DNA of 40,836 bases, taken from a virus. The notes under the pieces were generated by a model. That model had not been told where the DNA came from. It ran no database searches and saw only the letters and a program-made list of their open reading frames with translations. Positions 128 through 40,836 of this stretch are shown here, piece by piece (position 1 is the first letter of the stretch; every line of letters begins with the position of its first letter). The stretch spans positions 1-40,836 of the IMG/VR virus record IMGVR_UViG_3300034138_000059; one strand, written 5' to 3'. Made by a program: the position numbers and the translations under genes.

Positions 128-339
128 ATCAGGTACCCGTCTGGGTAGGAGTAGGGCCGCCGCTTCACGAAGCGCCCGCGACGATCGAGCACGTAGGCCC
201 GTTGCCCCCCGCACCGGATGCAGACGAGTCCCTGGTCGAAGGCCCCGGACGCCCGGTCCCGGCTCACCGTGCCGGCCTTCCAGGCGTGCCCCCAGAGCCG
301 GCACTCCAGGAACTCGGTCGGCATGTCCTCGCCGGGCAT
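25..339 (-). CDS. Hypothetical 104-aa Cys/His protein (possible zinc ribbon), translationally coupled to the integrase
   Basis: C-terminal part of track ORF 25..1302. The ATG at 339 overlaps the integrase stop (ATGA). Third codon positions are almost all G/C when read by eye. C13, H18, C40-x2-C43 are present. The remaining N-terminal part of the track ORF is Arg/Pro/Gly junk. Confidence 0.75.
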   Translation of the reverse strand: MPGEDMPTEFLECRLWGHAWKAGTVSRDRASGAFDQGLVCIRCGGQRAYVLDRRGRFVKRRPYSYPDGYLMPKGTGRLSSGERDDLRAELAERYAPATRRRRRQ

Positions 340-1358
340 CAGTCGTCTCCTTCGAGGTCGAGCTGGGCCGTCACGGTGTGCGCGACGGCACCCAGGCGTC
401 GGAGCGCGTTCGCGCCCCGGTCGTACAGGCGGGTCGTGTCCGGCGAGGCGTGGCCCATGAAGTCTTGGAGCCAGGCCAAGTTCGCGTCCTTCGTGTCGAG
501 GTAGAGCGTGGCGAAGGTGGCCCGGAAGACGTGCGGCGTCAGGTGCCGCTCGATCGAGCCGTCCTCGCGCCTGGTCGAGATGCCGGCGTCGAGCCCCAGG
601 TGCTCGCACAGGCGGTAGAGCCACTGGTAGTCGGCGTCGGTCGCCCCGGTGCCGATCAGGAAGTCGCCCGTCGTGCCGGCGAGGTAGGTATCCAGCCGGG
701 CGGCGACGGGCGGGTCGAGGACGAGCTTCTTCGTCTTGCCGCCCTTGCGCGTCACCGTGATGACCTTCCGGCCGTGGTCGAGCACGTAGTCGCTCCGGCG
801 CGCCGTGAGCAGCTCTCGCGCCCTGATGGCGAGCGTGCCCATCAGGAGGACGGCGACGGCCTCCCGTCGCCCGTGCGAGGCGCCCCGGGGGCGAGAGGGG
901 CACTCCGGCGGGGGCCACCGGGCCACCTTCAGCACCCGATCCAGCTCCTCGGCCGTGAGCGCCATCGTCTTGCCCTCGCCGCCGAAGGTCGGCCGGTCGA
1001 TGTCGAGAGCCGGATTGACCCAGGTCCACCCGAGCGCGGCGAGCGCGGGCGACTCCGGCAGGCGGGCGAGGTACTTGTAGAGGCTCGCCACGGCCGAGAG
1101 CTTGCGGCCGACCGAGGAGGGCGCGAGGTCGGCGTCCTCCAGCTCGGCGGCCCAGGTATCCACCGTGACCCGGTGGGCACGCCACGGATCGACCCCGCGC
1201 CGGGCGCAGAACGCCCGCCACTGCCGCAGATCCGTGCGGTAGGCCTTCCGGGTCGTGGCGCGCCTCTTGGACGTCAGGAAGGCTTCCACGGCGGCCTCCC
1301 ACGGGTCCGGCTGGACGACCAGCTCGGCCGCCGGCCGGACGACCAGCTCGCCGGTCAC
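339..1358 (-). CDS. int: Tyrosine recombinase / phage integrase
   Basis: C-terminal catalytic motifs LTPHVFRATFAT (HxxR) and GHASPDTTRLYDR (His...Tyr), plus an N-terminal SAM-like core-binding region (AYRTDLRQWRAFC). Start placed at the in-frame GTG at 1358, because codons 1359-1553 of the track ORF have poor GC3 and Arg-rich content. The start is uncertain. Confidence 0.9.
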   Translation of the reverse strand: MTGELVVRPAAELVVQPDPWEAAVEAFLTSKRRATTRKAYRTDLRQWRAFCARRGVDPWRAHRVTVDTWAAELEDADLAPSSVGRKLSAVASLYKYLARLPESPALAALGWTWVNPALDIDRPTFGGEGKTMALTAEELDRVLKVARWPPPECPSRPRGASHGRREAVAVLLMGTLAIRARELLTARRSDYVLDHGRKVITVTRKGGKTKKLVLDPPVAARLDTYLAGTTGDFLIGTGATDADYQWLYRLCEHLGLDAGISTRREDGSIERHLTPHVFRATFATLYLDTKDANLAWLQDFMGHASPDTTRLYDRGANALRRLGAVAHTVTAQLDLEGDD

Positions 1359-1524
1359 GAGGGCTTCACCCCGTCCGCGACGCACCCCGGGCACAAGTCC
1401 AGCGCGCCCGGGAGTTCGGTTCGACCGCCGGCTCCTCGGAGCGCGGCGCGGGCTTGAGTGGCGGACTGGCGGCTCGCCGTGGTCACGCACGCACAGCCGT
1501 CGCAGATGATCACGTACTCCACGC

Positions 1525-1842
1525 TCACCGGAAGGCCCTCCAGCCAGCGTCAAGGCAGGCCGTGGCGAAGCCGTCGGCCGCTACCTGCCAGGCCGCGGGC
1601 TGACGGGTGCTGCGGATCAGCGCGCGGGCCGCGAGTGGGAGCGTGGTCACGCTCGACCTGGAGGCCCACTCCTGGACCTTCGACGCCAGGGCCTTGCGCT
1701 CGTCGAGAGTGAGGCCCGACTCGTAGCCCTCGGCGAAGTCGTCGCAGGCGAGTCGGCCGGCGTCGTCGAGAGTCCGGCCGGCGGGCGCCCCGCACGCCGA
1801 CAGGAGCACGACGAGGACGACGGCGGCGAGCTTCGCGCGCAT
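1525..1842 (-). CDS. Putative secreted lipoprotein (105 aa)
   Basis: MRAKLAAVVLVVLLSAC gives a signal peptide with lipobox L-S-A-C. The ATG at 1842 overlaps the stop of the upstream small gene (ATGA). The upstream part of track ORF 1525..2151 is Arg-rich and rejected. Confidence 0.8.
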   Translation of the reverse strand: MRAKLAAVVLVVLLSACGAPAGRTLDDAGRLACDDFAEGYESGLTLDERKALASKVQEWASRSSVTTLPLAARALIRSTRQPAAWQVAADGFATACLDAGWRAFR

Positions 1843-3622: not shown

Positions 3623-4486
3623 TCACGCCTGGGCGGCGTCAACGCGGACGACTTCCGCCAGCTCGCGGTCCAGCCGACGGGCCGACTCCTCGCGCTTCCG
3701 TTCGATCCAGAAGTTGTCCGACCCACCGTGCCGACGGCCCAGCTCGGCCGCCGAGACGTCGTCGAGGCCGGCCAGAGCGGCCAGGATCTCGGCCGCCGCG
3801 GGCCGGCTCGGCGCCGGCCGCTTCATCGAGATCAGCGTCGTCTCGGGCTCGACGGTCGGGCCGACCGCCATCGCCTCCGCTCGGATGCTCTCCGTTCGGA
3901 TCGGGTCCTTCGGAGTCGCCGGCAGGACCGCGAGCGGCTCGGTCAGCGGCGCGTCGCTCGGGAGGATGGTCGGGCCGTTCGGGCTCTCGCTCGGGGTCGC
4001 GCTCGGACGCTCGGGCCGAGCGGCTCGGGTCCGCGCTCGGGTCTTCGGGCTCGCGCTCGGGGTGACGCTCGGGATCTGCTCGGACTCACGCTCGGACTCC
4101 TGCTCGGACCGCTCAGGCTCGGGCTCGGCCGCTCGGGCCTGCTCGAACTCCAGCGCGAGGGTCATCAGGACGACCGTGGCGATCGGGGCGAGGGCGATGA
4201 TCCGGCCCGAGATCGTCGGCTCGGAGGTCGACAGGGCGGCCCAGCACAACCAGGCGAGCCCGACCAGGGTCATCAGCCAGCCGACGATCGCCTTCGGCGA
4301 GTACCGGAGCTTCCAGACCCCGATCAGGATCAGGATGTCCGGCACGAAGGAGAGCGCGAGCTGGCGCCAGCCGTCGGTCCGGTGCTGGCCCAGGTGGTCG
4401 AAGACGTGCGAGACGTTCCAGGCCAGCACGCCGGCCCAGGCGACCGCGGTCACGCGCGTCATCCATCGACGCTCGCTCGGCGGCAT
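3623..4486 (-). CDS. DUF2637-like membrane protein with low-complexity linker and C-terminal domain (287 aa; the track ORF extends to 4549)
   Basis: N-terminal hydrophobic helices with LSFVPDILILIG, as in DUF2637 proteins of actinomycete conjugative elements and phages, followed by a Ser/Glu/Pro-rich linker. I prefer the ATG at 4486 (GGGAGA RBS 8 nt upstream), because the 21 codons up to 4549 have only about 60% GC3. Confidence 0.7.
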   Translation of the reverse strand: MPPSERRWMTRVTAVAWAGVLAWNVSHVFDHLGQHRTDGWRQLALSFVPDILILIGVWKLRYSPKAIVGWLMTLVGLAWLCWAALSTSEPTISGRIIALAPIATVVLMTLALEFEQARAAEPEPERSEQESERESEQIPSVTPSASPKTRARTRAARPERPSATPSESPNGPTILPSDAPLTEPLAVLPATPKDPIRTESIRAEAMAVGPTVEPETTLISMKRPAPSRPAAAEILAALAGLDDVSAAELGRRHGGSDNFWIERKREESARRLDRELAEVVRVDAAQA

Positions 4487-4585
4487 CGGACGGGTCTCCC
4501 AGAGCTTCACGTTCGGATCTCCTTCGGGTCGTTCGGGTCGACGGGACATCGACGTTCGGGACGTGCGCTCGGGTCGGTGCTCGGA

Positions 4586-4891
4586 TCAGAGTCGGCGTGC
4601 TCGCCGCCGCGCGGCCTCCTGGGGGCTTCGGGTCAGCGCCCGAAGCCCCCCGAGCGCGAGGGCGAGGACCCCGAGCACGGCGAGCACGGTCGGGCCGGAC
4701 AGCCCGAACGTGCCCGAGGCCCAGGCCCAGAGCCGAACGGCTCCGAGCCCGAGCGTCCCGAGCGCGACCGCGGCGACCGCGGCGACCAGGAGGTACCGGC
4801 CGCCCCAGCGCCAGAACAGGATGGTCCGGCGGTGCCGGCGGCCGGTCTCGGTCAGCGCGGCGTCGACCATCCGGTCCAGGTCTCGTCCCAT
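4586..4891 (-). CDS. Hypothetical membrane protein (101 aa, 2 predicted TM helices)
   Basis: MGRDLDRMVDAALTETG... followed by YLLVAAVAAVALGTLGLGAV and TVLAVLGVLALALGGL. AGGAGA RBS lies upstream of the ATG at 4891. The upstream part of the track ORF is rejected. Confidence 0.75.
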   Translation of the reverse strand: MGRDLDRMVDAALTETGRRHRRTILFWRWGGRYLLVAAVAAVALGTLGLGAVRLWAWASGTFGLSGPTVLAVLGVLALALGGLRALTRSPQEAARRRARRL

Positions 4892-4902
4892 GATCTGTTC
4901 TC

Positions 4903-5283
4903 CTACTTGTCGGCGGCGAAGTCGCCCGAGCTGGCCTTCTGGCCCCCGAGCATCTGCTCCTCCTCGGCGATGGCGGCCGAGAGGTTCCGGGCGGCCTCCT
5001 CCATGTGGGCCGCGGCGTTGAAGTAGAGCTTCCGGATCTTGCGGGCCGTCAGGATCTTGTCGATCCGCAGCCCCCAGCGGCTCGTCTTGCGGAGCTTCTG
5101 GTAGACGGCCTCGCCGGCCGAGTAGTACCCGTCGGCCCCCTGGACCTCCCGGGCGCGGCACTTCTCGGTGGCGGCGATCAGCTCGCTCGTCGTGCCGGCG
5201 GCCTCGACCGCTCGGGCCGGGTGGCGCACCGGGGCGGTGCCCTGGGCGGCCGGACGGGACCTCGTGCTCGTTTCCATGATCAT
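4903..5283 (-). CDS. Hypothetical 126-aa protein
   Basis: C-terminal part of track ORF 4903..5385. Start at MIMETSTRS (ATG at 5283, alternative at 5277). Helical, Lys/Arg/Ala/Glu-rich C-terminal half. Confidence 0.65.
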   Translation of the reverse strand: MIMETSTRSRPAAQGTAPVRHPARAVEAAGTTSELIAATEKCRAREVQGADGYYSAGEAVYQKLRKTSRWGLRIDKILTARKIRKLYFNAAAHMEEAARNLSAAIAEEEQMLGGQKASSGDFAADK

Positions 5284-5295
5284 CTCACTCTCTGT

Positions 5296-5464
5296 AGCGT
5301 CGGAGCGTTGTGTCGGGCTTGTGTCGGATGCGTCGGAGGCCTGGAGGCCGTTGTGTCGGCGAGGCTCTGACCTGCACCGACGCAACTTGCGTCGGCCGAC
5401 GCATCCCTAGGGAAATGAGCCCCGTGCGGGCACTTGCGTCGGCGCCGTGGCGGACGCCGACGCG
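5296..5464. repeat. Array of ten TG(C/T)GTCGG / CCGAC(G/A)CA 8-mers (clt-like candidate cis site)
   Basis: Forward copies at 5296, 5309, 5320, 5329, 5352, 5388 and 5435. Reverse copies at 5377, 5396 and 5457. Perfect palindrome TGCGTCGGCCGACGCA at 5388-5403. Confidence 0.85.
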
Positions 5465-5466
5465 AG

Positions 5467-7881
5467 TCACTCGTAGTGAGCGTCCGGGTCCTCGCCCGGC
5501 TCGTCACCCGTGGACGGGATGGGCGGGTTGAGGACCCCCAGGCGGACCTTCCAGCTCGCCGGCCGGCGCCCGCGGGCGGACGCCACGCGCTCCGCGAAGC
5601 CGAGCGCGGCCAGCTTGTGCAGCCGCTCGCCGAGGGCCGCTCGCGGGTTGCCGTAGCTGAAGATCCCGGTCTCGGCCCACAGCTCGCCGAGCGTCGACGT
5701 GTCGACCTCGATCCACTCCGGGTTGCCCTTCTTCGCGAAGATCCCTCGGAAGACCTCGATCAGGGCGGCGTCGGCCTCCTCCGGCGTCATCACCTTCTGC
5801 GGCAGCTCGTCGCCGAGGACCATGTCGTCCTCGGGGTCGACGGGCTCCAGCGCCCGTGAGACCCGCGGGTCGATGCCCTCGACGAGCTGGCGGGACTCCT
5901 CGTCGTCGTACAGCTCGCGCGCCTCCTGGCGGGCTTCGCTCTGGTCGATCGAACGCATCTCGTCCTCCTCCTCTTCGGCCGTGATCGGCCCCTGGTTGGT
6001 CTGCAACTTCCCCAGCTCCTCCTCGACGCTGGTCGCCCGGCTCGGGAGGGCGGGCGGGAACTCTGTCGTGACGCCGGCCGCCTGGAGGGCGGGGACGGCG
6101 ATCTCGGCGACCGCGCGGACGGCGGCCTCGGGCGTGCCGGCCGGCGGCGTCATCAGCTCGACCTCGTGCGCCTCCATCCAGTCCTCGCGGTTGCAGCGCT
6201 GGCGCTCCTGGTAGGTCTTGCCGTAGGCGCCCATCGAGGCGATCGAGCCCTGGTCGAGCTTCGCCATGACCGGCGCCCACCACGCGACGTGCCAGTGCAG
6301 GACGTCGGGCGGGATCGGCAGGAAGGTCCGGGCCGGCATCGCCCAGCGCTCCTGGGCGACCAGGGTCGACTCCAGGTAGGACATGCCGGGCTTCGCGTCG
6401 GCCCAGGCCCCCGGGTCGGCGCCGTAGGAGAGCGTCGTGTCCGACAGGGCCATGTTCGCGTCCGAGCTGTCCTTGATCCCGAAGCACCAGCCCCCGCCCA
6501 GCGACGAGCGGAGCGAGGTGTTTATGTTGTCCGCGCTCGCCCGCTGGAGCGAGATCGAGAGCGAGATCCCGACCGACCGGACCTGCTCGCCGAGGCGGAC
6601 GATGTCCTTGTCGAAGAACTCGGCGACGTCGGCGAACTCCTCGATGTGGACGATCAGGTATGGCAGCTTCAGGTGCTTCCAGGCGTCCGGGGTCCACTGC
6701 CGACCCTCGGCCTTGAACTTCTTCTTCAGCAGCGCGAGCGCGCCGGCCCGGTAGTTGACGATGAAGCGGAGGGCCTTCGCCATCGCCGCGGCCTCGGGCT
6801 TGCCGGTCGCGCACCAGTCGACGGCCGGCAGGATGTCGTCCGCGGTCTGGGCGCCCTTCACGGTGTCGACCCACCAGAGGACGACGTCGGGACGGGTGAC
6901 GATCTCGCTCACCTCGTGCAGCTCGGCCTCGGTCTTGCCGGCGCCCGGCATGCCCATGACGAGGTAGGACCGGGCGTTGCGGCCCTTCTTCGGGTCGCCC
7001 GGCCGCACCATCTCGAAGGCCGAGCCGTCCTCGTACCGGCCGAGCCGGCACGGCTCGGCGATCGACTGCCCCGGCCGGCTCGGCCCGGGCCAGGGCGCGG
7101 ACTCGGCGAGGACGTCCTTCGTCACCAGGGTCAGCCGGGTCTTGGAGGCGTCGGTCGGGTCGGGGATGACCCGAGCCGCGGTCGGGGGCAGGCCGGCGAG
7201 CGAGAGCAGGTCCGGCATGCCCTTCGCGATGCTCGCCGACTGCGCGCCCTTGTGCGACAGCACGAACTCGTGACGGACGCCGTCCTCGGACGGCTCGTGC
7301 TTGACGACCCGGACCTTCGCCTTGACGCCGAGGATCTCGGCCAGGTCGTCCGACCCGTCGGTCTGCGGGTGCTCGTCGTGACCCTCGCCCATCACGGCGC
7401 GGGAGCGACGGATGTTCCAGCTCAGCGCGACGAGCGCGGCGAGCAGCGAGTGGCCGTCGACCCAGGGGCGCTGCACCCAGAGGGTCAGCGGTCCGCCCGT
7501 GCTGTCGACGCTGACGAAGCCGATCAGGGTCGTGACCGCGACCGACAGGAGCGCGAAGCCGACGGTCACGGCGGCGCGCCACCGCGTGTAGTCGCCTCGG
7601 GGCTTCGCTTCGTGCAGGGTCACCCAGGCGAAACCGGCGCCCGCGAGCACCAGGACCGCGGCGATGGCGAAGCGCCAGCCAGTCTGGCCCCAGACCGCGT
7701 GCGCGATCATGCCGGCGGCCGGCACGGCCACGAAGCCGCCGATCCACGGACCGAGGTACTCGTCCAGGTCGGTCCCGGGGATGAAGTCGAACCAGCTCTT
7801 CTTCCGCTCGCGGGGCTGGCGCCGCGGTGCCGGAGCCGGCTTCCGGCCGGACGGGCGGGGCTTGCGGGTCGTCGAGGCCAT
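5467..7881 (-). CDS. FtsK/SpoIIIE-family DNA translocase, TraB-like (804 aa, N-terminal TM helices)
   Basis: Walker A GMPGAGKT, Walker B-like YLIVHIEEFADV, and an FtsK-type segment SLQRASADNINTSLRSSLGGGWCFGIKDSSD. Three to four N-terminal hydrophobic helices. C-terminal about 100 aa look like a winged helix. GAAGGAGGA RBS lies 7 nt upstream of the ATG at 7881. Confidence 0.9.
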   Translation of the reverse strand: MASTTRKPRPSGRKPAPAPRRQPRERKKSWFDFIPGTDLDEYLGPWIGGFVAVPAAGMIAHAVWGQTGWRFAIAAVLVLAGAGFAWVTLHEAKPRGDYTRWRAAVTVGFALLSVAVTTLIGFVSVDSTGGPLTLWVQRPWVDGHSLLAALVALSWNIRRSRAVMGEGHDEHPQTDGSDDLAEILGVKAKVRVVKHEPSEDGVRHEFVLSHKGAQSASIAKGMPDLLSLAGLPPTAARVIPDPTDASKTRLTLVTKDVLAESAPWPGPSRPGQSIAEPCRLGRYEDGSAFEMVRPGDPKKGRNARSYLVMGMPGAGKTEAELHEVSEIVTRPDVVLWWVDTVKGAQTADDILPAVDWCATGKPEAAAMAKALRFIVNYRAGALALLKKKFKAEGRQWTPDAWKHLKLPYLIVHIEEFADVAEFFDKDIVRLGEQVRSVGISLSISLQRASADNINTSLRSSLGGGWCFGIKDSSDANMALSDTTLSYGADPGAWADAKPGMSYLESTLVAQERWAMPARTFLPIPPDVLHWHVAWWAPVMAKLDQGSIASMGAYGKTYQERQRCNREDWMEAHEVELMTPPAGTPEAAVRAVAEIAVPALQAAGVTTEFPPALPSRATSVEEELGKLQTNQGPITAEEEEDEMRSIDQSEARQEARELYDDEESRQLVEGIDPRVSRALEPVDPEDDMVLGDELPQKVMTPEEADAALIEVFRGIFAKKGNPEWIEVDTSTLGELWAETGIFSYGNPRAALGERLHKLAALGFAERVASARGRRPASWKVRLGVLNPPIPSTGDEPGEDPDAHYE

Positions 7882-7943
7882 CGGTCAGTCCTCCTTCGGG
7901 GTGGCGGCGAGCGAGCGGGCGGGACGGGACATCGACGCTCGCC

Positions 7944-8345
7944 CTACTTCGTCTGGCCCGGCTGGAGCCGGGCGGGAACGGGGGCGGCCGGAGTGACCGG
8001 CGCCTGGTAGATCACGGTCTTGACGAGCACCGAGTCGGCCGCCGTCAGGAAGCCGCGCGAGGACGGCTGGAACCAGCGGGCGACGTTGTTGTTGTTCAGC
8101 GTCAGCGTCAGCACCTCGTCGGGGCCGCCGTTCACGCTGGCGAGCACGGCCGACCCGACGGTGCTCGGGGCCGGAACCTCCAGGACCAAGACGGTCATGT
8201 TCGGCGACAGCGTCAGCACCTCACCCTCGTCGGTCTGGACCGAGACGAAGCCGGCCGACGTTGACCCCACGACCCCGGAGGACCGGAGTCGCACGCGGGT
8301 GCCGACGGCCAGGGTGCCGAGGGGGGCGGGCTCGCGCTCGGCCAT
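7944..8345 (-). CDS. Hypothetical 133-aa protein
   Basis: C-terminal part of track ORF 7944..8717. The ATG at 8345 overlaps the upstream stop (ATGA). Beta-rich composition (VLVLEVPAPSTVGSAVLASVNGG...). Confidence 0.7.
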   Translation of the reverse strand: MAEREPAPLGTLAVGTRVRLRSSGVVGSTSAGFVSVQTDEGEVLTLSPNMTVLVLEVPAPSTVGSAVLASVNGGPDEVLTLTLNNNNVARWFQPSSRGFLTAADSVLVKTVIYQAPVTPAAPVPARLQPGQTK

Positions 8346-8569
8346 CAGCGCTGGACCTTCGTGCGCTGGACCACGGCCAGGACGAGCGCGGCCGGTCGGC
8401 TGAAGGTGAGCACGAAGGCCACGGAGGCGGCCACGACGACGATCACGCTCAGGTAGTCGCCCCCGCCGCGGACCGCGGTCGACAGGGAGAACAGGAACGT
8501 CAGCACGCAGAGCGCGCGGGTCAAGGCCTGGGTGGTCGGCGGGGTCTTCGTGACGGTCGGGGTCTTCAT
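8345..8569 (-). CDS. Small membrane protein (74 aa, 2 TM helices)
   Basis: Track ORF. Hydrophobic helices LCVLTFLFSLSTAV and VIVVVAASVAFVLTF. ATGA overlaps at both ends. Confidence 0.75.
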   Translation of the reverse strand: MKTPTVTKTPPTTQALTRALCVLTFLFSLSTAVRGGGDYLSVIVVVAASVAFVLTFSRPAALVLAVVQRTKVQR

Positions 8570-8760
8570 GACGGGGTGCTCTCCTTCTGCTTCGCTGCGG
8601 CGAGGACGGCTTCGACGCTGTCCTCGTAGACCTTGATCGGACCCCGGGGGGCCGTGAGCTGGAAGCCGTCCAGCCGACCGGCGAAGTACCAGCGCCGGAC
8701 GGTCTGGCGCTCGACACCGAGGCGCTTCGCGGCTTGCTCGGTGGTCAACGTGGCGCGCAC
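8566..8760 (-). CDS. Helix-turn-helix DNA-binding protein, excisionase/MerR-like (64 aa)
   Basis: LTTEQAAKRLGVERQTVRRWYFAGRL is a typical Xis-family HTH. GTG start at 8760 with a GAGGAGG RBS. First gene of the leftward operon. Confidence 0.8.
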   Translation of the reverse strand: MRATLTTEQAAKRLGVERQTVRRWYFAGRLDGFQLTAPRGPIKVYEDSVEAVLAAAKQKESTPS

Positions 8761-8922
8761 ATCAGGCCTCCTCTCATAGGCAACATCGACAACATCGGGA
8801 TCACAGTCTCACGTCGGACCGTGTCGGCGCAAGCGCATCCCGCAACCGACTGGGATGTTGCGGATGTTGCCGATGTCCCGTAGTGTCGTCCCCGATGTCC
8901 CCGAACGACGAGAGGAACCGCC
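8761..8922. promoter_or_regulatory. Divergent control region with inverted sets of 9-bp-period repeats (CGATGT(T/C)(G/C)C)
   Basis: CAACATCG at 8781 and 8790. GATGTTGC at 8854 and 8863. CGATGTCCC at 8871 and 8893. Candidate rightward promoter: -35 TTGCGG 8858-8863, 17-nt spacer, -10 TAGTGT 8881-8886. Confidence 0.7.
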
Positions 8923-9390
8923 ATGACGATGTCGCCCTACACCGCCGGCCGGATCACGCTGGCGAACGGCAAGGTGCGTGACGCCGTCCGCGCCGAGAAC
9001 GGTGCCGTGGACTACCGCGCTGACCGCGACGTGACCGCCGGCCGCTACGTGAAGTCGACCTGGCGCAAGGCCACCGTGAAGCAGGCCGCCACCTTCGTGC
9101 CCGACGCGCCCGAGGTGGTCGTGGTCGAGAGTGAGGTGCCGACCGCGCCGGCCGCCACGGAGAAGGCGGCTCGCGACGCCCTGGTCGACGCCCAGCTCGA
9201 CGAGGTGCGCAAGCTCCGCGAGGACTACGAGAAGGCCTCCGCCGACCTGGCCGTCTCCGTCCGGGTCTGGCTCGCCCCCCGGCCCGACATCGTCCTGCCG
9301 AGCTACGTCCGGAACGACCTCGACCTCGCGATCTTCGCCTACGAGGCCTGGGACTCGGCCGTCGACGCCCTGCCGGACCTGGAGGCGTGA
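8923..9390 (+). CDS. Hypothetical 155-aa early protein
   Basis: Track ORF with a GAGAGGAA RBS upstream and balanced composition. Confidence 0.8.
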   Translation: MTMSPYTAGRITLANGKVRDAVRAENGAVDYRADRDVTAGRYVKSTWRKATVKQAATFVPDAPEVVVVESEVPTAPAATEKAARDALVDAQLDEVRKLREDYEKASADLAVSVRVWLAPRPDIVLPSYVRNDLDLAIFAYEAWDSAVDALPDLEA

Positions 9391-9393
9391 CCG

Positions 9394-9609
9394 ATGCGCG
9401 AGTTCGGAGCGTTCAACGACGAGGGATGCACCTTCGCCGGCTTCTCCACCCTGGCGAGCGCGGCCGAGGAGGCGGCCTACCAGATGGAGGACGGCGACGA
9501 GTGGGCCTACGCCGCCGAGCTGTGCCCAGACCACGAAGAGCAGGCACGTGACGCCTGCGAGGAGTGCCTGGCCGAAGACGAGACCGACGACGAGGACGAG
9601 GAGGTCTGA
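9394..9609 (+). CDS. Hypothetical very acidic 71-aa protein with 4 Cys
   Basis: Track ORF. 25 of 71 residues are Asp/Glu. C-terminal tail ETDDEDEEV. Cys at positions 12, 44, 55 and 58. Confidence 0.8.
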   Translation: MREFGAFNDEGCTFAGFSTLASAAEEAAYQMEDGDEWAYAAELCPDHEEQARDACEECLAEDETDDEDEEV

Positions 9610-9612
9610 CCG

Positions 9613-9813
9613 ATGCCGAGCTTCGAGCAGATCCTCGCGATCATCCTCGTCGTCGCCTTCCTGAAGCTGGCCGACAAGCTGGTCGACGAGTGGCGCGCCA
9701 CCCGGGGGCACAAGCGCGAGCTGGCCCGCGAGATCCACGACGCCAACGTCCGCTACCTGGAGAAGAACGGCCGGACCCTGGCCGCTCAGCTCACGACCGA
9801 AGGAGAGCGCTGA
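9613..9813 (+). CDS. Small membrane protein (66 aa, N-terminal TM helix)
   Basis: Track ORF. ILAIILVVAFLKLA helix followed by a charged tail. Confidence 0.75.
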   Translation: MPSFEQILAIILVVAFLKLADKLVDEWRATRGHKRELAREIHDANVRYLEKNGRTLAAQLTTEGER

Positions 9814-9815
9814 AC

Positions 9816-10043
9816 ATGAGCCAGCCCCCCGTCCCGAAGGGCGCCGTCCGAGGCATGTCGCCCGCCCGCAACACGGACGGCCAGCCCGGCCGCCTCGTGC
9901 TCTCCGACCACACGGAGCGGCTGGCCCAGGCCCGCTCCCGCGCTCAGTACGAGATCGGCGACATGTACTGGGCCGACATGATCATCGCCGCCTACCTCGA
10001 TCCCGCGCTCGACCTGGAGAAGCTCCGGAAGGACATGGCATGA
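9816..10043 (+). CDS. Hypothetical 75-aa protein
   Basis: C-terminal part of track ORF 9564..10043. ATG at 9816 is preceded by an AAGGAGA RBS. Confidence 0.7.
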   Translation: MSQPPVPKGAVRGMSPARNTDGQPGRLVLSDHTERLAQARSRAQYEIGDMYWADMIIAAYLDPALDLEKLRKDMA

Positions 10044-10261
10044 CCCACGACGAGGAGTTCACCACCGTCTCCCACGCCCACGACGCGATCCTCCAGGCCG
10101 CCCGCCTGTGCATCGCCCTGATGGCCCTCGCGATCATCGCCGGCATGGTCGGCCAGAGCACGGCGTTCGTCGCGCTCGTCGGCGGCATCGGCGCGATCCT
10201 GGTCCACCTCGTCATCGACCTGCTCACCAGCCGCGACGACGACCCGCCGGAGGCTCAGTGA
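10040..10261 (+). CDS. Small membrane protein (73 aa)
   Basis: Track ORF. ATGA overlap with the upstream gene. Two hydrophobic helices. Confidence 0.75.
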   Translation: MTHDEEFTTVSHAHDAILQAARLCIALMALAIIAGMVGQSTAFVALVGGIGAILVHLVIDLLTSRDDDPPEAQ

Positions 10262-10497
10262 TCGGGCCGCTCCCCGAGGGCATGGTCCGGTGCCTGTCCT
10301 GCGGCGGCGTCCGCACACCGGATCAGATGCAGCGGGCGATCGACTTCGGCTGGCGGCCCATCCCCGGCGAGTTCGTGTGCCGAGACGCCGGGCTCTGCTT
10401 CCACTCGATGCGCGCTCGGGGCTTCGACACCGGCCGCTTGACGGCCGACGGACTGGGCCGCATCGTCAAGACCGTCGTGATCGGAGAGGAGGACTGA
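10258..10497 (+). CDS. Hypothetical 79-aa zinc-ribbon-like protein
   Basis: C-terminal part of track ORF 10108..10497. The GTG at 10258 overlaps the upstream stop (GTGA). CLSC...C-x5-C. Alternative ATG at 10282. Confidence 0.65.
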   Translation: MIGPLPEGMVRCLSCGGVRTPDQMQRAIDFGWRPIPGEFVCRDAGLCFHSMRARGFDTGRLTADGLGRIVKTVVIGEED

Positions 10498-10552
10498 TGT
10501 CGTACTGGCTCGATCTCTGGTACCGCTACTGGTGACCACTCCCTGAACAGCA

Positions 10553-10587
10553 CGAAGCCCCCGCCGCGAGATGCGACGGGGGCTTCG
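10553..10587. terminator. Intrinsic terminator hairpin between convergent operons
   Basis: CGAAGCCCCCG (10553-10563), 13-nt loop, CGGGGGCTTCG (10577-10587). Perfect 11-bp stem. Confidence 0.8.
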
Positions 10588-10602
10588 TCGTGCGTCAGGC
10601 CA

Positions 10603-11286
10603 TCAGCAGCGGCCCTTCTTCGCCTGGCCCGGGGGGCACTCCTTCTCGCCCTTGACCTTGTCGGGCTTCACGGCTGGGGCCGCCGGCTCCTCGACGCTCG
10701 GGGGAGGCGTCGAGGGAACCGGCGGCGTCGTCGAGGACGGCGGGGGGGACGTCGTCGACGACCCGGTCGTGCCACCGGCCGTCGGCCCCAACGGGCCAGG
10801 AGGGGGACGGCGGGGCGACCGGCTCTCGGGGGGAGCCGCGGGCGGGGTCGGGCCGGACCGCGGCGGGATGAAGGCGGCCGGCTCGGCGTCGTCGCCCGGC
10901 TGGACGGGCTGGGCGACAGGCTCGGCCGCCCGACCGGGCGATCCCGCCGGCCGGCGCGGTGCCGGCGCCTCCGGGGTCGCCCCCGGTGCCGACGGGGCGA
11001 CCTTCGGGCCGGCGGCCGACGGCGAGGTCGACGACAGCACGCCGCCGAGCAGGAGCACCGCGAGGGAGGCCGTCGCGAGCATGCCGGCGCCGACGCCGAG
11101 GGAGGTCCCGCTGGGCCGAAGGCCCTTCAGTCGGCGGGCGACCGGCGGGCGGACCTTGATCACTTCAAGGCGCTGAGCGCCCCCGGTGGTGGGGGCGAGT
11201 CGGCGCCGGCCGGACGGGACGGGGCGGCGCAGGAAGCGGCGCCGCGTGCGGCTCCACTGGCGTTCGAACCAGAAGCGGATGGACAT
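10603..11286 (-). CDS. Single-pass membrane protein with basic N-terminus and Pro/Ser/Thr-rich extracytoplasmic region (227 aa)
   Basis: Track ORF. GC3 is very high when read by eye. TM helix MLATASLAVLLLGGVL. C-terminal KECPPGQAKKGRC. The ATG lies 4 nt after the repressor stop, so the two are coupled. Confidence 0.75.
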   Translation of the reverse strand: MSIRFWFERQWSRTRRRFLRRPVPSGRRRLAPTTGGAQRLEVIKVRPPVARRLKGLRPSGTSLGVGAGMLATASLAVLLLGGVLSSTSPSAAGPKVAPSAPGATPEAPAPRRPAGSPGRAAEPVAQPVQPGDDAEPAAFIPPRSGPTPPAAPPESRSPRRPPPGPLGPTAGGTTGSSTTSPPPSSTTPPVPSTPPPSVEEPAAPAVKPDKVKGEKECPPGQAKKGRC

Positions 11287-11290
11287 CGGG

Positions 11291-11752
11291 TCAGGCTCCC
11301 ACGGTGAGAAGGTGCGACGGGGTCATCAGCGGAAACCCACGACCCGGGGTCCTCGCCCGGATTGCTGCCGCTTGCTGGACCGCGACGGCGGAGAGCACGG
11401 CGCGGAGTTCGTTCGCCTCTTCGGGGGCGAGCCCGGAGACGAGAGCCGGGTCGAGCTGGAGCGCGATCAGGCCGGGCACGGTGGCCTCCAGGTCCGGGAT
11501 CGCCTGGCGCGCCAGCTCGACCTCGACGCGACGCTCCAGCTCGTCGGCGGGCCAGCCGAGCGCCTCGGAGATCGCGCGGATCACCTGGGGCTCGCGCCAG
11601 CCGTCGGCGTTGAAGAAGCGGCTGACGGTCTTGTAGCTGACCTCGGCCCGGTCGGCGAGGTCGACCTGGGTCAGGTCCAGGGAGTTCATCCGGTCGTAGG
11701 CGGCGCGCCGAACGGTGTGTCGGGCGCGAGCGATCCTCTCTCGGTCGTCCAC
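11291..11752 (-). CDS. XRE-family helix-turn-helix transcriptional regulator, candidate phage repressor (153 aa)
   Basis: LDLTQVDLADRAEVSYKTVSRFFN is a classic XRE HTH. The GTG at 11752 has a GAGAGAGGA RBS 7 nt upstream. No S24 peptidase motif is seen in the C-terminal half. The N-terminal extension of the track ORF is rejected. Confidence 0.8.
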   Translation of the reverse strand: MDDRERIARARHTVRRAAYDRMNSLDLTQVDLADRAEVSYKTVSRFFNADGWREPQVIRAISEALGWPADELERRVEVELARQAIPDLEATVPGLIALQLDPALVSGLAPEEANELRAVLSAVAVQQAAAIRARTPGRGFPLMTPSHLLTVGA

Positions 11753-12106
11753 GGTGCGGTCCTCTCTCGGGTGCAGGTGGGTCACCGAGAAGGCCTTCGA
11801 GGTAGCGGCGGGCTCGCGTATCGGTCGTGCGGCCTTCCCCGTGCTGCACAGGGGCAGGATGTCCCACCCGGACACGACAAGCAACATTCCGTGTCCACGG
11901 ATGCCCCGTTGTCACGCTCCGTGAGTCCTCCAGAGCGTTACATCGGATGTTCACCCCAGGACAGCCCCGGCCGATCGGCCGTCTTGAATGAGACTCGGCG
12001 AACCGCTTGACAGTCCCAGACCGGACCCTCATCCTGGGACTACGGCCAAGGAGGGCCACACAGGGCCACGGGCCCTGACCGGACACCGAGAGAGGAGGCG
12101 GACCGC
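11753..12106. promoter_or_regulatory. Second divergent control region (candidate immunity switch)
   Basis: Candidate promoter: TTGACA 12007-12012, 17-nt spacer, CATCCT 12030-12035. It is overlapped by inverted repeat AGTCCCAG 12012-12019 / CTGGGACT 12034-12041. Second inverted repeat GGACACG 11870-11876 / CGTGTCC 11890-11896. GGATGTCCC at 11857-11865. Confidence 0.6.
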
Positions 12107-12319
12107 ATGAGCCCCACCGAGAAGACCTGGAGCCTCGCCGAGGCCGCCCTGCTCGTCGGCTGCTCGGCCCGCACCCTCCGTCGGAAGCACGCCCTGAAGC
12201 AGGTCGGCGCGATTCGCGTCGGAGGGCACCCGACCCGCGGGCCGCTCCGCTTCACCGAGCAGGACATCGCTACGGCCCGCGCCCTCTGTTACCGGCGCGT
12301 CGAGGCCGAAGCCGCATAG
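12107..12319 (+). CDS. Helix-turn-helix DNA-binding protein, excisionase/MerR-like (70 aa; Cro-like or Xis-like)
   Basis: WSLAEAALLVGCSARTLRRKHAL HTH. GAGAGGAGG RBS. First rightward gene after the control region. Confidence 0.8.
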   Translation: MSPTEKTWSLAEAALLVGCSARTLRRKHALKQVGAIRVGGHPTRGPLRFTEQDIATARALCYRRVEAEAA

Positions 12320-12421
12320 ACATCCGGGCGCGGGCGGCATGCCGAGGCACCCGCTCGCGTCCGGGATCAACTTCCACATCGCGTCGCCTGTCCCGTCGAC
12401 GCACGACAGAAAGGCCCCATC

Positions 12422-12808
12422 GTGAGCGCTCCCCGCTTCGTCTCCGGTCGGTGCCGGACGCACGAGTTCGTGACGGCCGACCCCGCCCTCTTCGAGCAGC
12501 ACATGGTCGGCGAGCACGGCAAGAAGTCCCGGACGGCGTCGGCCGGACGGGCGACCACCTGGCGCACCCCGAACCGCGTGCCGGAGGCGAAGGCCCAGGC
12601 CGCGGCCGGCATGGTCACGGTGGCCGGGCTCGTCGACGGCGAGCTGCTCGCCCAGGTCGTCGGCCCCGCGGCGTGGCCGCGCACCTCCTGGGTCATCCCG
12701 GCCACGCCGACCGGCCGCGAGTTCCAGGGCTGCCTCCTGGTCCGCACCGAGGGCGACCGCCTGGTCGAGGTCAACCACGACCACCTCGTGAATCGACGGG
12801 CCGCCTGA
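12422..12808 (+). CDS. Hypothetical 128-aa protein
   Basis: Track ORF with GTG start and plausible composition. Its stop overlaps the next start (ATGA-type). Confidence 0.7.
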   Translation: MSAPRFVSGRCRTHEFVTADPALFEQHMVGEHGKKSRTASAGRATTWRTPNRVPEAKAQAAAGMVTVAGLVDGELLAQVVGPAAWPRTSWVIPATPTGREFQGCLLVRTEGDRLVEVNHDHLVNRRAA

Positions 12809-13146
12809 TGCCGCGCCGCCGCTTCTTCCGCGACTCGGCCGACTGGCGCAGTCGGGCCGCCTGCTTCCACGACGGCGACCCGGAGGCCTTCTTCCCCTTC
12901 GGCGACGACCACAAGGACGAGCCGTCGCCCCGGACCCAGGCCCTCCTCGACGAGGCGAAGGCCTTCTGCCAGACCTCCGGCCCCGGGGGGACCGCGTGCC
13001 CCGTCATCGCCGCCTGCCTGGAGGACGTCCTGTCCTCCGAGGGCTCGAACACCTTCGGCGTCCGCGGCGGGACCGACCCGGCCGAGCGTCGGCGCATCCT
13101 CCGTCGCCGCCGCGACTCGGCCCGCGCCCTTCAGGTCGCGTCGTGA
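12808..13146 (+). CDS. WhiB-like transcriptional regulator with atypical Cys spacing (112 aa)
   Basis: Four Cys (AAC19F, FC54Q, TAC64P, AAC70L). GVRGG turn in place of GVWGG. Arg-rich C-terminus. Cys spacing is C-x9-C-x5-C instead of the usual C-x2-C-x5-C. Confidence 0.7.
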   Translation: MPRRRFFRDSADWRSRAACFHDGDPEAFFPFGDDHKDEPSPRTQALLDEAKAFCQTSGPGGTACPVIAACLEDVLSSEGSNTFGVRGGTDPAERRRILRRRRDSARALQVAS

Positions 13147-18983: not shown

Positions 18984-19039
18984 CCACCTGGACCCCGACA
19001 CGCCCGGGTGCAGAAATCGAAGACACGCCGCATTTTCCA

Positions 19040-19295
19040 GGTACCACCCCCCCTGGTACCTGGCCTGTTGATCATGCCCTGGTACCTGTTGTGGCACCTG
19101 CTCTGACCTGCGCGTCTCTCTATGTGAGACGGGCTTGGTACCTGGGTGGTACTTCGGTTGCCGATGTTGTGGCACCTGCTCTGACCTGCACTTGGTACCT
19201 CTGGTACCTGGGTGGTACTTCGCCTGGCACCTCCCTCCACCCCCCGGTCCTTTAGGACCGGGGGGGTGGTACCTGGGACCTGGGACCTGGAACCC
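19040..19295. repeat. Iteron-like repeat array (putative replication origin)
   Basis: GGTACC at 19040, 19055, 19081, 19137, 19194, 19203 and 19268. GGTACT at 19148 and 19214. 24-bp direct repeat at 19088-19111 and 19166-19189. 21-bp direct repeat at 19136-19156 and 19202-19222. Hairpin at 19237-19269. 7-bp tandem ACCTGGG at 19271-19293. Confidence 0.8.
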
Positions 19296-22319: not shown

Positions 22320-22497
22320 TTCAACGATCATGACCTCGATGCATCAGGGCAGGTCAGGGGCGTGATCATCAGAAACGTTTGCATCAGCGCAGGTCAGCCC
22401 CATGATTTTTTGGGGGCCGCCCGCCCGTCGACCCCACGCACAGTCGAAAAATCTCACACCGGGTAGCGCCTAGGGCGCCTGACGTCAGGAGGCCCCG
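22320..22497. other. Candidate cos / terminase recognition region
   Basis: Low-GC gap between the HNH block and terS. 17-bp direct repeat GCATCAG(G/C)GCAGGTCAG at 22341-22357 and 22381-22397. GATCAT motifs. T6 run at 22405-22411. Confidence 0.45.
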
Positions 22498-38855: not shown

Positions 38856-38979
38856 CCCACCTACCCCGGCCGGGGCCGCCCGTGTGGGCGGGCCGCCTCG
38901 GCCGGGCCTTCAACCGTGAGACGACCCCGGGGGGAACCTCTTGCTCTCTGACCTGTCCGACATCTTCCGCGAGGGCGGC

Positions 38980-39291
38980 ATGTCCGCGCCGGCCTGGGCC
39001 TTCTTCACGACGATCCTGGCCGCGCTGATCGCCCTCCTCCGCGAGTCGATCCAGGCCCGGCACGCCGCGAACGACGCGAAGAAGGCCGCCGGCCGCGCCT
39101 CCGACCAGATCGACGAGGTCCGCAAGCTCTCGGAGCCCACCGGCAACGGCTTCGCCGAGAAGGTGCTGAGAGGCCAGGAGGACATCGTCATGCGCCTGAA
39201 GCGTCTGGAGACCGGCCAGGACGCACAGGCGAGCACGCTGATGGCGCACCTCCTGGAGCACGACCGCAAGCACGACCACCCCATCGACTGA
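38980..39291 (+). CDS. Membrane protein with N-terminal TM helix and coiled-coil tail (103 aa; the track ORF starts at TTG 38941)
   Basis: WAFFTTILAALIALL helix. GAGGG RBS 5 nt before the ATG at 38980. First gene of the lysis cassette. Confidence 0.65.
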   Translation: MSAPAWAFFTTILAALIALLRESIQARHAANDAKKAAGRASDQIDEVRKLSEPTGNGFAEKVLRGQEDIVMRLKRLETGQDAQASTLMAHLLEHDRKHDHPID

Positions 39292-40680: not shown

Positions 40681-40720
40681 GAAGCGGCCCCGGCCTCCTG
40701 ATGGAGGTCGGGGCCGCTTC
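40681..40720. terminator. Strong bidirectional terminator hairpin between the lysis cassette and the convergent int-side operon
   Basis: GAAGCGGCCCCGGCCTCC, TGAT loop, GGAGGTCGGGGCCGCTTC. 18-bp stem with one G-U pair. It spans the start of the terminal repeat. Confidence 0.85.
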
Positions 40721-40836
40721 GTCGTTCCCGGGGTCACTGCCGGCGCCTCCGGCGGGTCGCGGGTGCGTACCGCTCGGCCAGCTCGGCCCGGAGGTCGTCG
40801 CGCTCTCCCGACGAGAGGCGCCCGGTGCCCTTCGGC
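40710..40836. repeat. Right copy of the exact 127-bp terminal direct repeat. It contains a truncated duplicate (40734..40836, minus strand) of the 3' end of gene 25..339.
   Basis: Identical to bases 1-127 when read base by base. Confidence 0.97.

Follow-up and report, generated by a model that had tools for sequence, protein, structure and literature searches.

What is a dense array of short repeats doing directly behind the gene for a conjugation-type DNA pump, in the genome of a tailed phage? The question is raised by the IMG/VR virus record IMGVR_UViG_3300034138_000059, of which we analysed all 40,836 nucleotides (hereafter, the window). The element is a temperate tailed phage, and the locus in question is a 183-bp non-coding gap at positions 5284–5466, which stands between a tra gene encoding a TraB-like translocase and the next leftward gene:

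5467–7881, minus strand: TraB-like double-stranded DNA (dsDNA) translocase of 804 aa, identified by PHROGs, tblastn against plasmid TraB, NCBIfam, and an FtsK motor profile and fold
5284–5466, minus strand: clt-like array with ten copies of an 8-bp word, direct and inverted, plus two generic boxes
4903–5283, minus strand: conserved small basic protein of 124–126 aa with no known domain, directly after the array

The reading that we favour, and consider probable, is that the gap serves the phage's own DNA pump, which is of the TraB type, as a clt-like site acting in cis.

The gap is bordered by the stop codon of the 804-aa open reading frame (ORF; 5467–5469) and by the ATG with which the next leftward gene starts (5277 is likelier than 5283). 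Two contigs from other samples (L041 and L042) are 95–99% identical to the window and circular permutations of it; in these near-identical contigs no gene is called in the gap, and indels distinguish relatives within it. The array occupies the entire gap from the tra stop codon to the ribosome-binding site of the next gene. Its word reads CCGACRCA in the orientation of the gene and TGYGTCGG on the plus strand. A preliminary description of the locus had listed ten copies, and each was verified against the sequence: seven forward copies start at 5296 (5296–5303, the variant AGCGTCGG), 5309, 5320, 5329, 5352, 5388, and 5435, and three reverse copies at 5377, 5396, and 5457 (the last being the variant CGCGTCGG), so that the core GYGTCGG is present ten times. 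The palindrome described at 5388–5403 is indeed perfect over 16 bp, and the five forward copies with the longer form TTGYGTCGG are present, together with one reverse copy of the same form (six copies).

It had also been predicted that the word would be enriched at this gap and nowhere else, and this is what we find. The exact 8-mer TGYGTCGG has nine matches in the window, eight of them within 5309–5442, where the rate outside the gap gives an expectation (lambda) of 0.005 per 183 bp (P = 4e-24). The 7-mer core, with ten copies in the gap against a lambda of 0.18 estimated from the rest of the window, gives P = 6.5e-15. In 100 second-order Markov simulations the biggest clusters held four 7-mers or two 8-mers and never reached the observed one. 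The words and boxes are laid out as follows:

5296–5359, minus strand: five copies in one orientation, their starts 13, 11, 9, and 23 bp apart
5365–5375, no strand: 11-mer box CTCTGACCTGC, found exactly three times in the window (the others at 19101 and 19179)
5377–5403, no strand: three words, with CCGACGCA at 5377–5384, then 3 nt, then the palindrome TGCGTCGG/CCGACGCA at 5388–5403
5404–5413, no strand: palindromic box TCCCTAGGGA, abutting the palindromic word pair
5432–5467, no strand: first inverted pair of words, directly behind the stop codon, with 13-nt arms and a 10-nt loop

The five-copy block stops 12 nt short of the ribosome-binding site GAGAGTGAG, and the inverted pair at 5432–5467 could double as a hairpin or terminator.

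The gene upstream of the array encodes a divergent yet clearly recognisable, membrane-anchored homologue of Streptomyces plasmid TraB, with an FtsK-type hexameric motor and a C-terminal winged helix. A PHROGs search retrieved phrog_24831 (E = 2.5e-66) and, weakly, FtsK/SpoIIIE families, and tblastn against plasmids gave 51 records, mostly annotated as Streptomyces plasmid TraB, with 30–36% identity over residues 42–561 and E-values down to 2e-56. The NCBIfam model plasmid_TraB (NF041214) matches at E = 5.2e-113 (378.7 bits, model positions 7–576 of 639), and the family profile matches the FtsK motor in the PDB (E = 7e-07). The Walker A and Walker B motifs read GMPGAGKT and LIVHIEEF. The full protein, modelled with AlphaFold (pLDDT 74), has four parts: four long N-terminal helices (residues 38–163, with hydropathy transmembrane (TM) segments at 69–87 and 102–120), a motor domain whose best Foldseek neighbours in the PDB are FtsK motor domains (E = 4e-14, TM-score 0.61), a disordered acidic linker (residues ~610–697), and a compact C-terminal domain. 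The first and last of these map to the window as follows:

7393–7770, minus strand: N-terminal membrane region of the translocase, four long helices (residues ~38–163)
5530–5784, minus strand: C-terminal winged-helix domain of the translocase (residues ~700–784), with the presumed recognition helix NPRAALGERLHKLAAL

A DNA-binding fold had been suspected at the C-terminus, and the last ~100 residues are modelled as a canonical winged helix: an AlphaFold2 model of residues 692–804 (pLDDT 77.8) has the topology a1-b1-a2-a3-b2-wing-b3. The structural neighbours agree, since the top 50 Foldseek matches of this domain are winged-helix proteins (H1, MarR, BlaI, ORC, and kleisin), with weak E-values of 0.01–0.2.

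Judged from the sequences, the array matches the class of plasmid clt sites in its position, its word length, its mixture of direct and inverted copies, and even the composition of its word. The closest likeness in word, CCGACACA here and CCGCACA there, is with pJV1 and pSN22. The pJV1 clt contains nine CCGCACA[C/G][C/G] direct repeats and two pairs of inverted repeats (PMC3583192); in the sequences of both plasmids that we inspected, CCGCACA repeats start right at the traB stop and run to the next gene, with words of 7–9 bp and direct and inverted copies mixed, as here. The translocases are homologous (31–33% identity) and their C-terminal winged helices align. However, pJV1 and pSN22 are small rolling-circle plasmids and not a complete tailed-phage genome; the window lacks a GntR-type TraR or a TraA gene beside tra, its translocase has a longer acidic linker, and the CCTAGG and CTGACCTG boxes of its array were not seen in the post-traB arrays of pSN22 or pJV1.

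The pWTY27 clt (175 bp) comprises 16 bp of traA and the adjacent 159 bp, with TGACACC and CCCGCCC repeats, and is bound by pWTY27 TraA in electrophoretic mobility shift assays and footprinting (PMC3583192). It resembles our locus in combining a gene end with ~160 bp of adjacent non-coding DNA and in mixing direct and inverted repeats. Its word differs from that of the window, although it is nearly the same as the word TGACAC(C/A) of some TraB relatives described below (L002 and L016–L021). pWTY27 is a theta-type plasmid, or an excised actinomycete integrative and conjugative element (AICE), without virion genes, and the binding of Tra to the repeats was demonstrated there, whereas for the window it is proposed. 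The gene-to-repeat geometry of Streptomyces clt loci, which the preliminary description had claimed for this phage, is thus the geometry seen in the pJV1 and pSN22 sequences and reported for pWTY27 (PMC3583192); in pIJ101, clt is located elsewhere (PMC3583192).

The mode of recognition can be compared with that of pSVH1, where helix a3 of the winged helix-turn-helix (wHTH) of TraB reads 8-bp TRS repeats (Vogelmann et al. 2011, as relayed in PMC4447253 and PMC3583192). Hexamer and pore formation are known from pSVH1 TraB only. The domain plan of TraB in the literature, with a TM region, an FtsK-type motor, and a C-terminal wHTH, is that of the phage translocase (PMC4447253, PMC3583192); an 8-bp word and a proposed recognition by helix a3 are further likenesses, while the word itself is not that of pSVH1.

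An analogy with FtsK and its FtsK-orienting polar sequences (KOPS) had been drawn as well. KOPS are dispersed and strand-skewed over the chromosome. The analogy stands for the reading head, a winged helix at the C-terminus of an FtsK-type motor facing an 8-bp word, and fails for the distribution, because the phage has its word concentrated in a single place. Beyond the array, the core GYGTCGG occurs 19 times on the plus and 20 times on the minus strand, and the exact 8-mer once; with no strand bias, we rejected a KOPS-like polarity.

The preliminary description had further expected arrays beside the translocase genes of relatives. The close TraB family has 15 members among 5.8 billion proteins, and we read the DNA 3' of the stop codon in every retrievable locus. 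A homologous, alignable array is present in six close relatives (L048, L001, L047, L043, L044, and L002), and arrays begin ~5–25 nt from the tra stop in these and in L045 and L010. A profile search of genome and metagenome contigs with the alignment of the close sub-family gave no confirmed relative. The closest sub-family keeps a fixed order: the stop codon is followed by one word and, after ~25–30 nt, by a palindromic CCT(A/TA)GG box; next come an inverted word (or a palindrome of words), a box of the CAGGTCA type, and three to five direct words, and the series ends with the GGAGAGTGA ribosome-binding site of a conserved gene of 121–138 aa. The words, in gene orientation, are:

Window: CCGACRCA
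L048 (TraB 74% identical): CCGACGCA
L043 and L044: CCGACGC
L001: CCGACGAG
L047: CGGACGC
L002: YGACACA

The word is thus lineage-specific, and all copies within one locus are altered together on an alignable scaffold. In L048 the spacers have diverged and the words are retained. In L041 and L042, three of the five substitutions fall at the single degenerate position of the word and none at its other seven positions; both arms of the first inverted pair (5432–5467) are altered together, at the degenerate Y/R position. The presumed recognition helices start with NPRAALGERL, NPRSALGERL, NPRPFLGDRL, NPRPFLGRRL, or NKRAALSERL across loci, and appear from these sequences to vary in step with the word, a pattern that is suggestive only.

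More distant TraB relatives (L010, L045, and the IMG/VR loci) also have arrays directly after the stop codon, each lineage with a word of its own. By eye, ~20 of the 27 IMG/VR TraB loci, all on viral contigs, carry an array after tra, and in 13 of the 27 the 3' window ranks among the 5% most repetitive of the locus, as measured in 7-mers. Their words include TGACAC, CGTGACA, CTGACGC, CCGTAC, CCGTGC, GTGGCA, TTGCAC, GCGACA, CGATTATCG, and TGGAAA. The expectation of arrays in relatives was therefore borne out in both the close and the distant loci. In seven of these loci (L028–L031, L035, L039, and L010), with different words between lineages, the word array is followed, ~150–230 nt past the tra stop, by a conserved non-coding stretch, CAAGATCAA...GCGCG..ATCCCACGCGCAGCCGTRCGCGCG.

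Some of these relatives deserve a description of their own. L002 (ena:ERZ27259148:k141_3364857, 19,351 bp) has tra at 7400–9622, with a TraB 44–48% identical, a degenerate array, and a 138-aa gene; its contig also encodes a match to the PRD1-type capsid P3 N-domain, a lysozyme, and a short terminase-like ATPase, and the element may be tectivirus-like and equipped with a conjugation pump. L010 (ena:ERZ25039565:contig_121949) is prophage-like, with integrase, RusA, holin, and large tail proteins; between its integrase and its lysis and tail genes lies a plasmid-style module (8096–13001) of two GntR genes, a TraA-like gene, and TraB, followed by the CGTGACA array. The IMG/VR elements L017–L021 (80–87 kb, from isolate genomes) resemble Streptomyces plasmid-phages of the pZL12/pSLE1 class in size and in their post-tra TGACAC arrays; the nearest plasmid records are NC_019307 and NC_013449 (~85 kb). 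In L005, whose TraB has no adjacent array, a non-coding gap 8 kb upstream (640–922) contains CCATGCC six times and GCCACGC five times, which might represent a displaced clt or have nothing to do with one.

The two generic boxes of the array behave differently from the word. The CCT(W0-4)AGG box is kept at the same array position in relatives regardless of their word, and both boxes recur in the TraB-downstream arrays of distant lineages, the CTGACCTG/CAGGTCAG core of the 11-mer box in many of them. In the window, CCT(W)AGG occurs just three times (5406, 19249, and 22469), always in non-coding DNA. The CTGACCTG/CAGGTCAG core occurs six times, five of them within three non-coding regions, namely the tra array, 19039–19260, and 22320–22497; the sixth copy, at 38948, is at the start of a predicted gene (38941–39291). 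The gap at 19039–19260, after the Prim-Pol/AAA_25 gene, holds a second array of ~8 copies of TGGTACCT (or TGGTACTT), with the 21-mer GTGGCACCTGCTCTGACCTGC twice and a perfect hairpin, CCCCGGTCCTTTAGGACCGGGG; it has the CTCTGACCTGC and CCT(W)AGG boxes in common with the tra-downstream array and is a candidate for a replication origin or a second protein-loading site. The non-coding region 22320–22497, before the small-terminase gene, has both generic boxes once more, in two copies of GCATCAGSGCAGGTCAG and a palindrome, GCGCCTAGGGCGC, and may represent a late promoter or else a cos/pac region.

The most serious rival to a clt-like site is that the array serves as an operator or centromere-like site for another DNA-binding protein, most plausibly the downstream 126-aa protein, which would regulate its own gene or act as a SpdA/sps-type stability or adaptor protein; the array would then control downstream spd-like genes and not the loading of a pump. 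We consider this unlikely, but it has real points in its favour. The array reaches the ribosome-binding site of the 126-aa gene and contains a perfect 16-bp palindrome, gene and array are together in all seven loci of the closest sub-family, and SpdA (117–163 aa) offers a precedent of a small protein, encoded beside traB, that binds two to three palindromes situated within its gene or upstream of it (PMC4170104). However, sps is a conserved 12-bp palindrome, CGTCACGTGACG, in two to three copies, whereas here a lineage-specific 8-mer is present ten times and its palindrome is TGCGTCGGCCGACGCA. No DNA-binding domain was detected in the 126-aa family, a PDB sequence search gave nothing meaningful, and we rejected homology with SpdA, as hhalign against the pJV1 protein gave a probability of 0.3%; Spd proteins are poorly conserved (PMC4170104). 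Similar arrays follow TraB genes that have unrelated downstream genes (L010, L014, L017, L025–L031, and L035–L040), the equivalent arrays of pWTY27 and pJV1 are Tra-bound or clt, and the likely operators of the operon (8761–8922) use other words, GATGTTGC and CCGATGTCCC. The common denominator is TraB: the 126-aa gene is found beside the array in the closest sub-family only, and its product is absent from L010 and the IMG/VR loci that retain arrays. A small helix-turn-helix (HTH) regulator shared between loci was also considered as the binder and rejected, because the small HTH proteins encoded upstream are non-homologous between loci.

The inverted copies might instead act at the level of RNA, as a tra terminator and a structured 5' leader, with the repeats as by-products of hairpins. 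The transcript of the gap does fold at -90 kcal/mol (z = -4.07 relative to shuffles), a 13-bp GC hairpin directly follows the stop codon, and the two arms of this hairpin are altered together in L041 and L042. Yet the five direct copies are unable to pair mutually, the compensatory change in both arms preserves the word as well, and relatives retain words and not hairpins (L001 and L043 have one word before the box); there is no U-tract terminator or Rfam match, and a promoter/terminator consensus scan of the gap came back empty. We therefore hold this explanation to be improbable. Slightly less probable again are iterons of an origin, perhaps auxiliary, for the Prim-Pol/helicase module: the words of 8 bp with ~11-bp spacing would suit one, and the second array, with both generic boxes, directly follows the Prim-Pol gene. 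What makes an origin unlikely is that the array accompanies tra, and not rep genes, in ~25 loci; it also lies 11 kb from the replication genes, without an AT-rich unwinding stretch, and the array at 19039–19260, with its different word (TGGTACCT), is the better origin candidate. A chance cluster or low-complexity artefact has nothing more to recommend it than the high GC content (72%) of the genome. With P at most 1e-14, a simulated maximum of 4 against the 10 observed, the pattern of substitutions in L041 and L042, and the alignment with relatives, in which the array is conserved, we regard it as refuted and its probability as negligible.

A number of observations nevertheless weigh against reading the gap as a clt-like site. 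The translocase scores 378.7 bits with the NCBIfam TraB model, below the curated equivalog cut-off of 800 bits; given the strong E-value and the tblastn identity, we class it as a homologue of TraB and not as an equivalog. The Pfam scan of the translocase was without any match, as was that of its neighbour genes, and among the genes flanking tra in the window there is no GntR-type TraR/KorA repressor (L010 has one). About 9 of the 35 TraB-family loci have the winged helix without an adjacent array (L005, L009, L024, L032–34, L036, and others), which makes the adjacency of tra and array frequent and not obligatory. The array of L002 is too degenerate to be significant by itself, and phylogeny confounds the covariation of helix and word, which is based on few loci. 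The array adjoins the ribosome-binding site of the next gene and has palindromes, which fits an operator too. Finally, both generic boxes are found again in two further non-coding regions of the phage, where the words are different, so part of the architecture of the array is not specific to TraB; these boxes may be host-factor sites or parts of transcription signals.

That tra and its array belong to a phage, and do not lie in flanking host DNA, follows from the structure of the contig. Positions 1–127 are an exact direct repeat of 40710–40836, which closes the contig into a circle of about 40.7 kb (40,709 bp), and together with the permuted near-identical contigs this places the locus inside a complete phage genome. 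The gene map, made by ORF calling guided by the GC content of third codon positions and by Pfam, includes virion genes (large terminase (TerL), portal, HK97-type capsid, tape-measure-like protein, and tail genes), genes for lysogeny and its regulation (tyrosine integrase, excisionase-family HTH protein, and HTH_3 repressor), and replication genes (helicase and Prim-Pol/AAA_25 protein) 11 kb from the tra array. With integrase, Prim-Pol, terminase, portal, capsid, and tail genes on one element with tra, the phage is an AICE-like hybrid. Among 50,697 isolated phage genomes, neither megablast of positions 4000–9000 nor tblastn of the translocase gave a match, and no isolated phage has a portal more than 33% identical. 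The other genes relevant to the locus are:

339–1553, minus strand: tyrosine integrase, closing the leftward block of genes to which tra belongs
3623–4549, minus strand: membrane protein of the same leftward operon, with three predicted TM segments and a stretch rich in Pro, Glu, and Ser
8566–8760, minus strand: excisionase-family HTH protein, heading the leftward operon that contains tra
11291–11887, minus strand: HTH_3 repressor (Pfam)

By position and topology alone, the product of 3623–4549 is a possible Spd-like spreading protein; neither it nor the small proteins downstream of tra matched a known Spd family in Pfam or NCBIfam. Inside this gene, which encodes a 308-aa protein, GCTCGG/CCGAGC occurs 16 times in 200 bp (3937–4131). 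As this repeat encodes a low-complexity Pro/Glu/Ser/Arg-rich stretch, we take it to be coding and no cis site. The divergent region 8761–8922, which separates the excisionase-family HTH gene from the rightward genes, contains a separate set of operator-like words, with GGATGTTGC twice in tandem facing an inverted CAACATCGACAACATC, and CCGATGTCCC twice; it is likely the control region of the leftward operon containing tra.

If the gap is a clt-like site, a mechanism can be proposed from the plasmid systems. The winged helices of a TraB ring would read the 8-bp words in the manner of TRS, and this would assemble the motor on the circular dsDNA genome of the phage, after excision or during replication. 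The motor would then pump the unprocessed phage DNA into a neighbouring cell or hyphal compartment, perhaps assisted in a Spd-like manner by the membrane and small proteins encoded downstream. The outcome would be a second, capsid-independent route of spreading for a temperate tailed phage, similar to the one used by AICEs and conjugative Streptomyces plasmids. The binder of the words is taken here to be TraB and no other protein, and an actual transfer of the phage genome is likewise inferred. The gap probably also contains the terminator of tra and start signals of the downstream genes (the post-stop hairpin, the CCTAGG box, and the CTGACCTG box), and TraB occupancy may for this reason influence downstream expression as well; the clt, terminator, and start-signal readings are compatible and not mutually exclusive. 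It is possible, if on balance doubtful, that this temperate tailed phage and its relatives, including the small contig with a PRD1-type capsid, move their dsDNA genomes directly between cells or hyphal compartments by means of TraB and clt and are virus and conjugative element at once, with the lineage-specific words serving as private address labels against the cross-mobilisation of co-resident elements.

TraB and clt are already known from Streptomyces plasmids and AICEs. In the latter, an integrase and a replication protein (Prim-Pol or RepSA) are joined by a Tra/clt module (PMC3218068); this phage shares the integrase, the Prim-Pol, and the Tra/clt-like module with AICEs such as pSAM2, SLP1, and pMEA300, which in contrast have no terminase, portal, capsid, or tail genes. 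A partial precedent is the plasmid-phage pZL12, cited as carrying virion and Streptomyces-type tra genes in one element (Zhong et al. 2010), which in that account is a ~90-kb plasmid-prophage maintained by ParAB and not an integrase-encoding phage of 40.7 kb. New is the setting, a complete integrase-encoding tailed phage of 40.7 kb that also meets the definition of an AICE by Int, Prim-Pol, and Tra. AICEs called by the presence of Int, Rep, and Tra may turn out to be phages, and vice versa. The ~25 TraB loci with matched lineage-specific words provide a data set from which one could work out the code by which the TraB winged helix recognises DNA. Should the module be active, a single 40.7-kb element would spread either as a virion or as naked dsDNA through a TraB pore, without lysis or receptor. 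This would affect how we interpret host range, the spread of prophages in mycelia, and 'viral' contigs in metagenomes, and it would blur the distinction between transduction-type and conjugation-type gene flow in actinobacteria.

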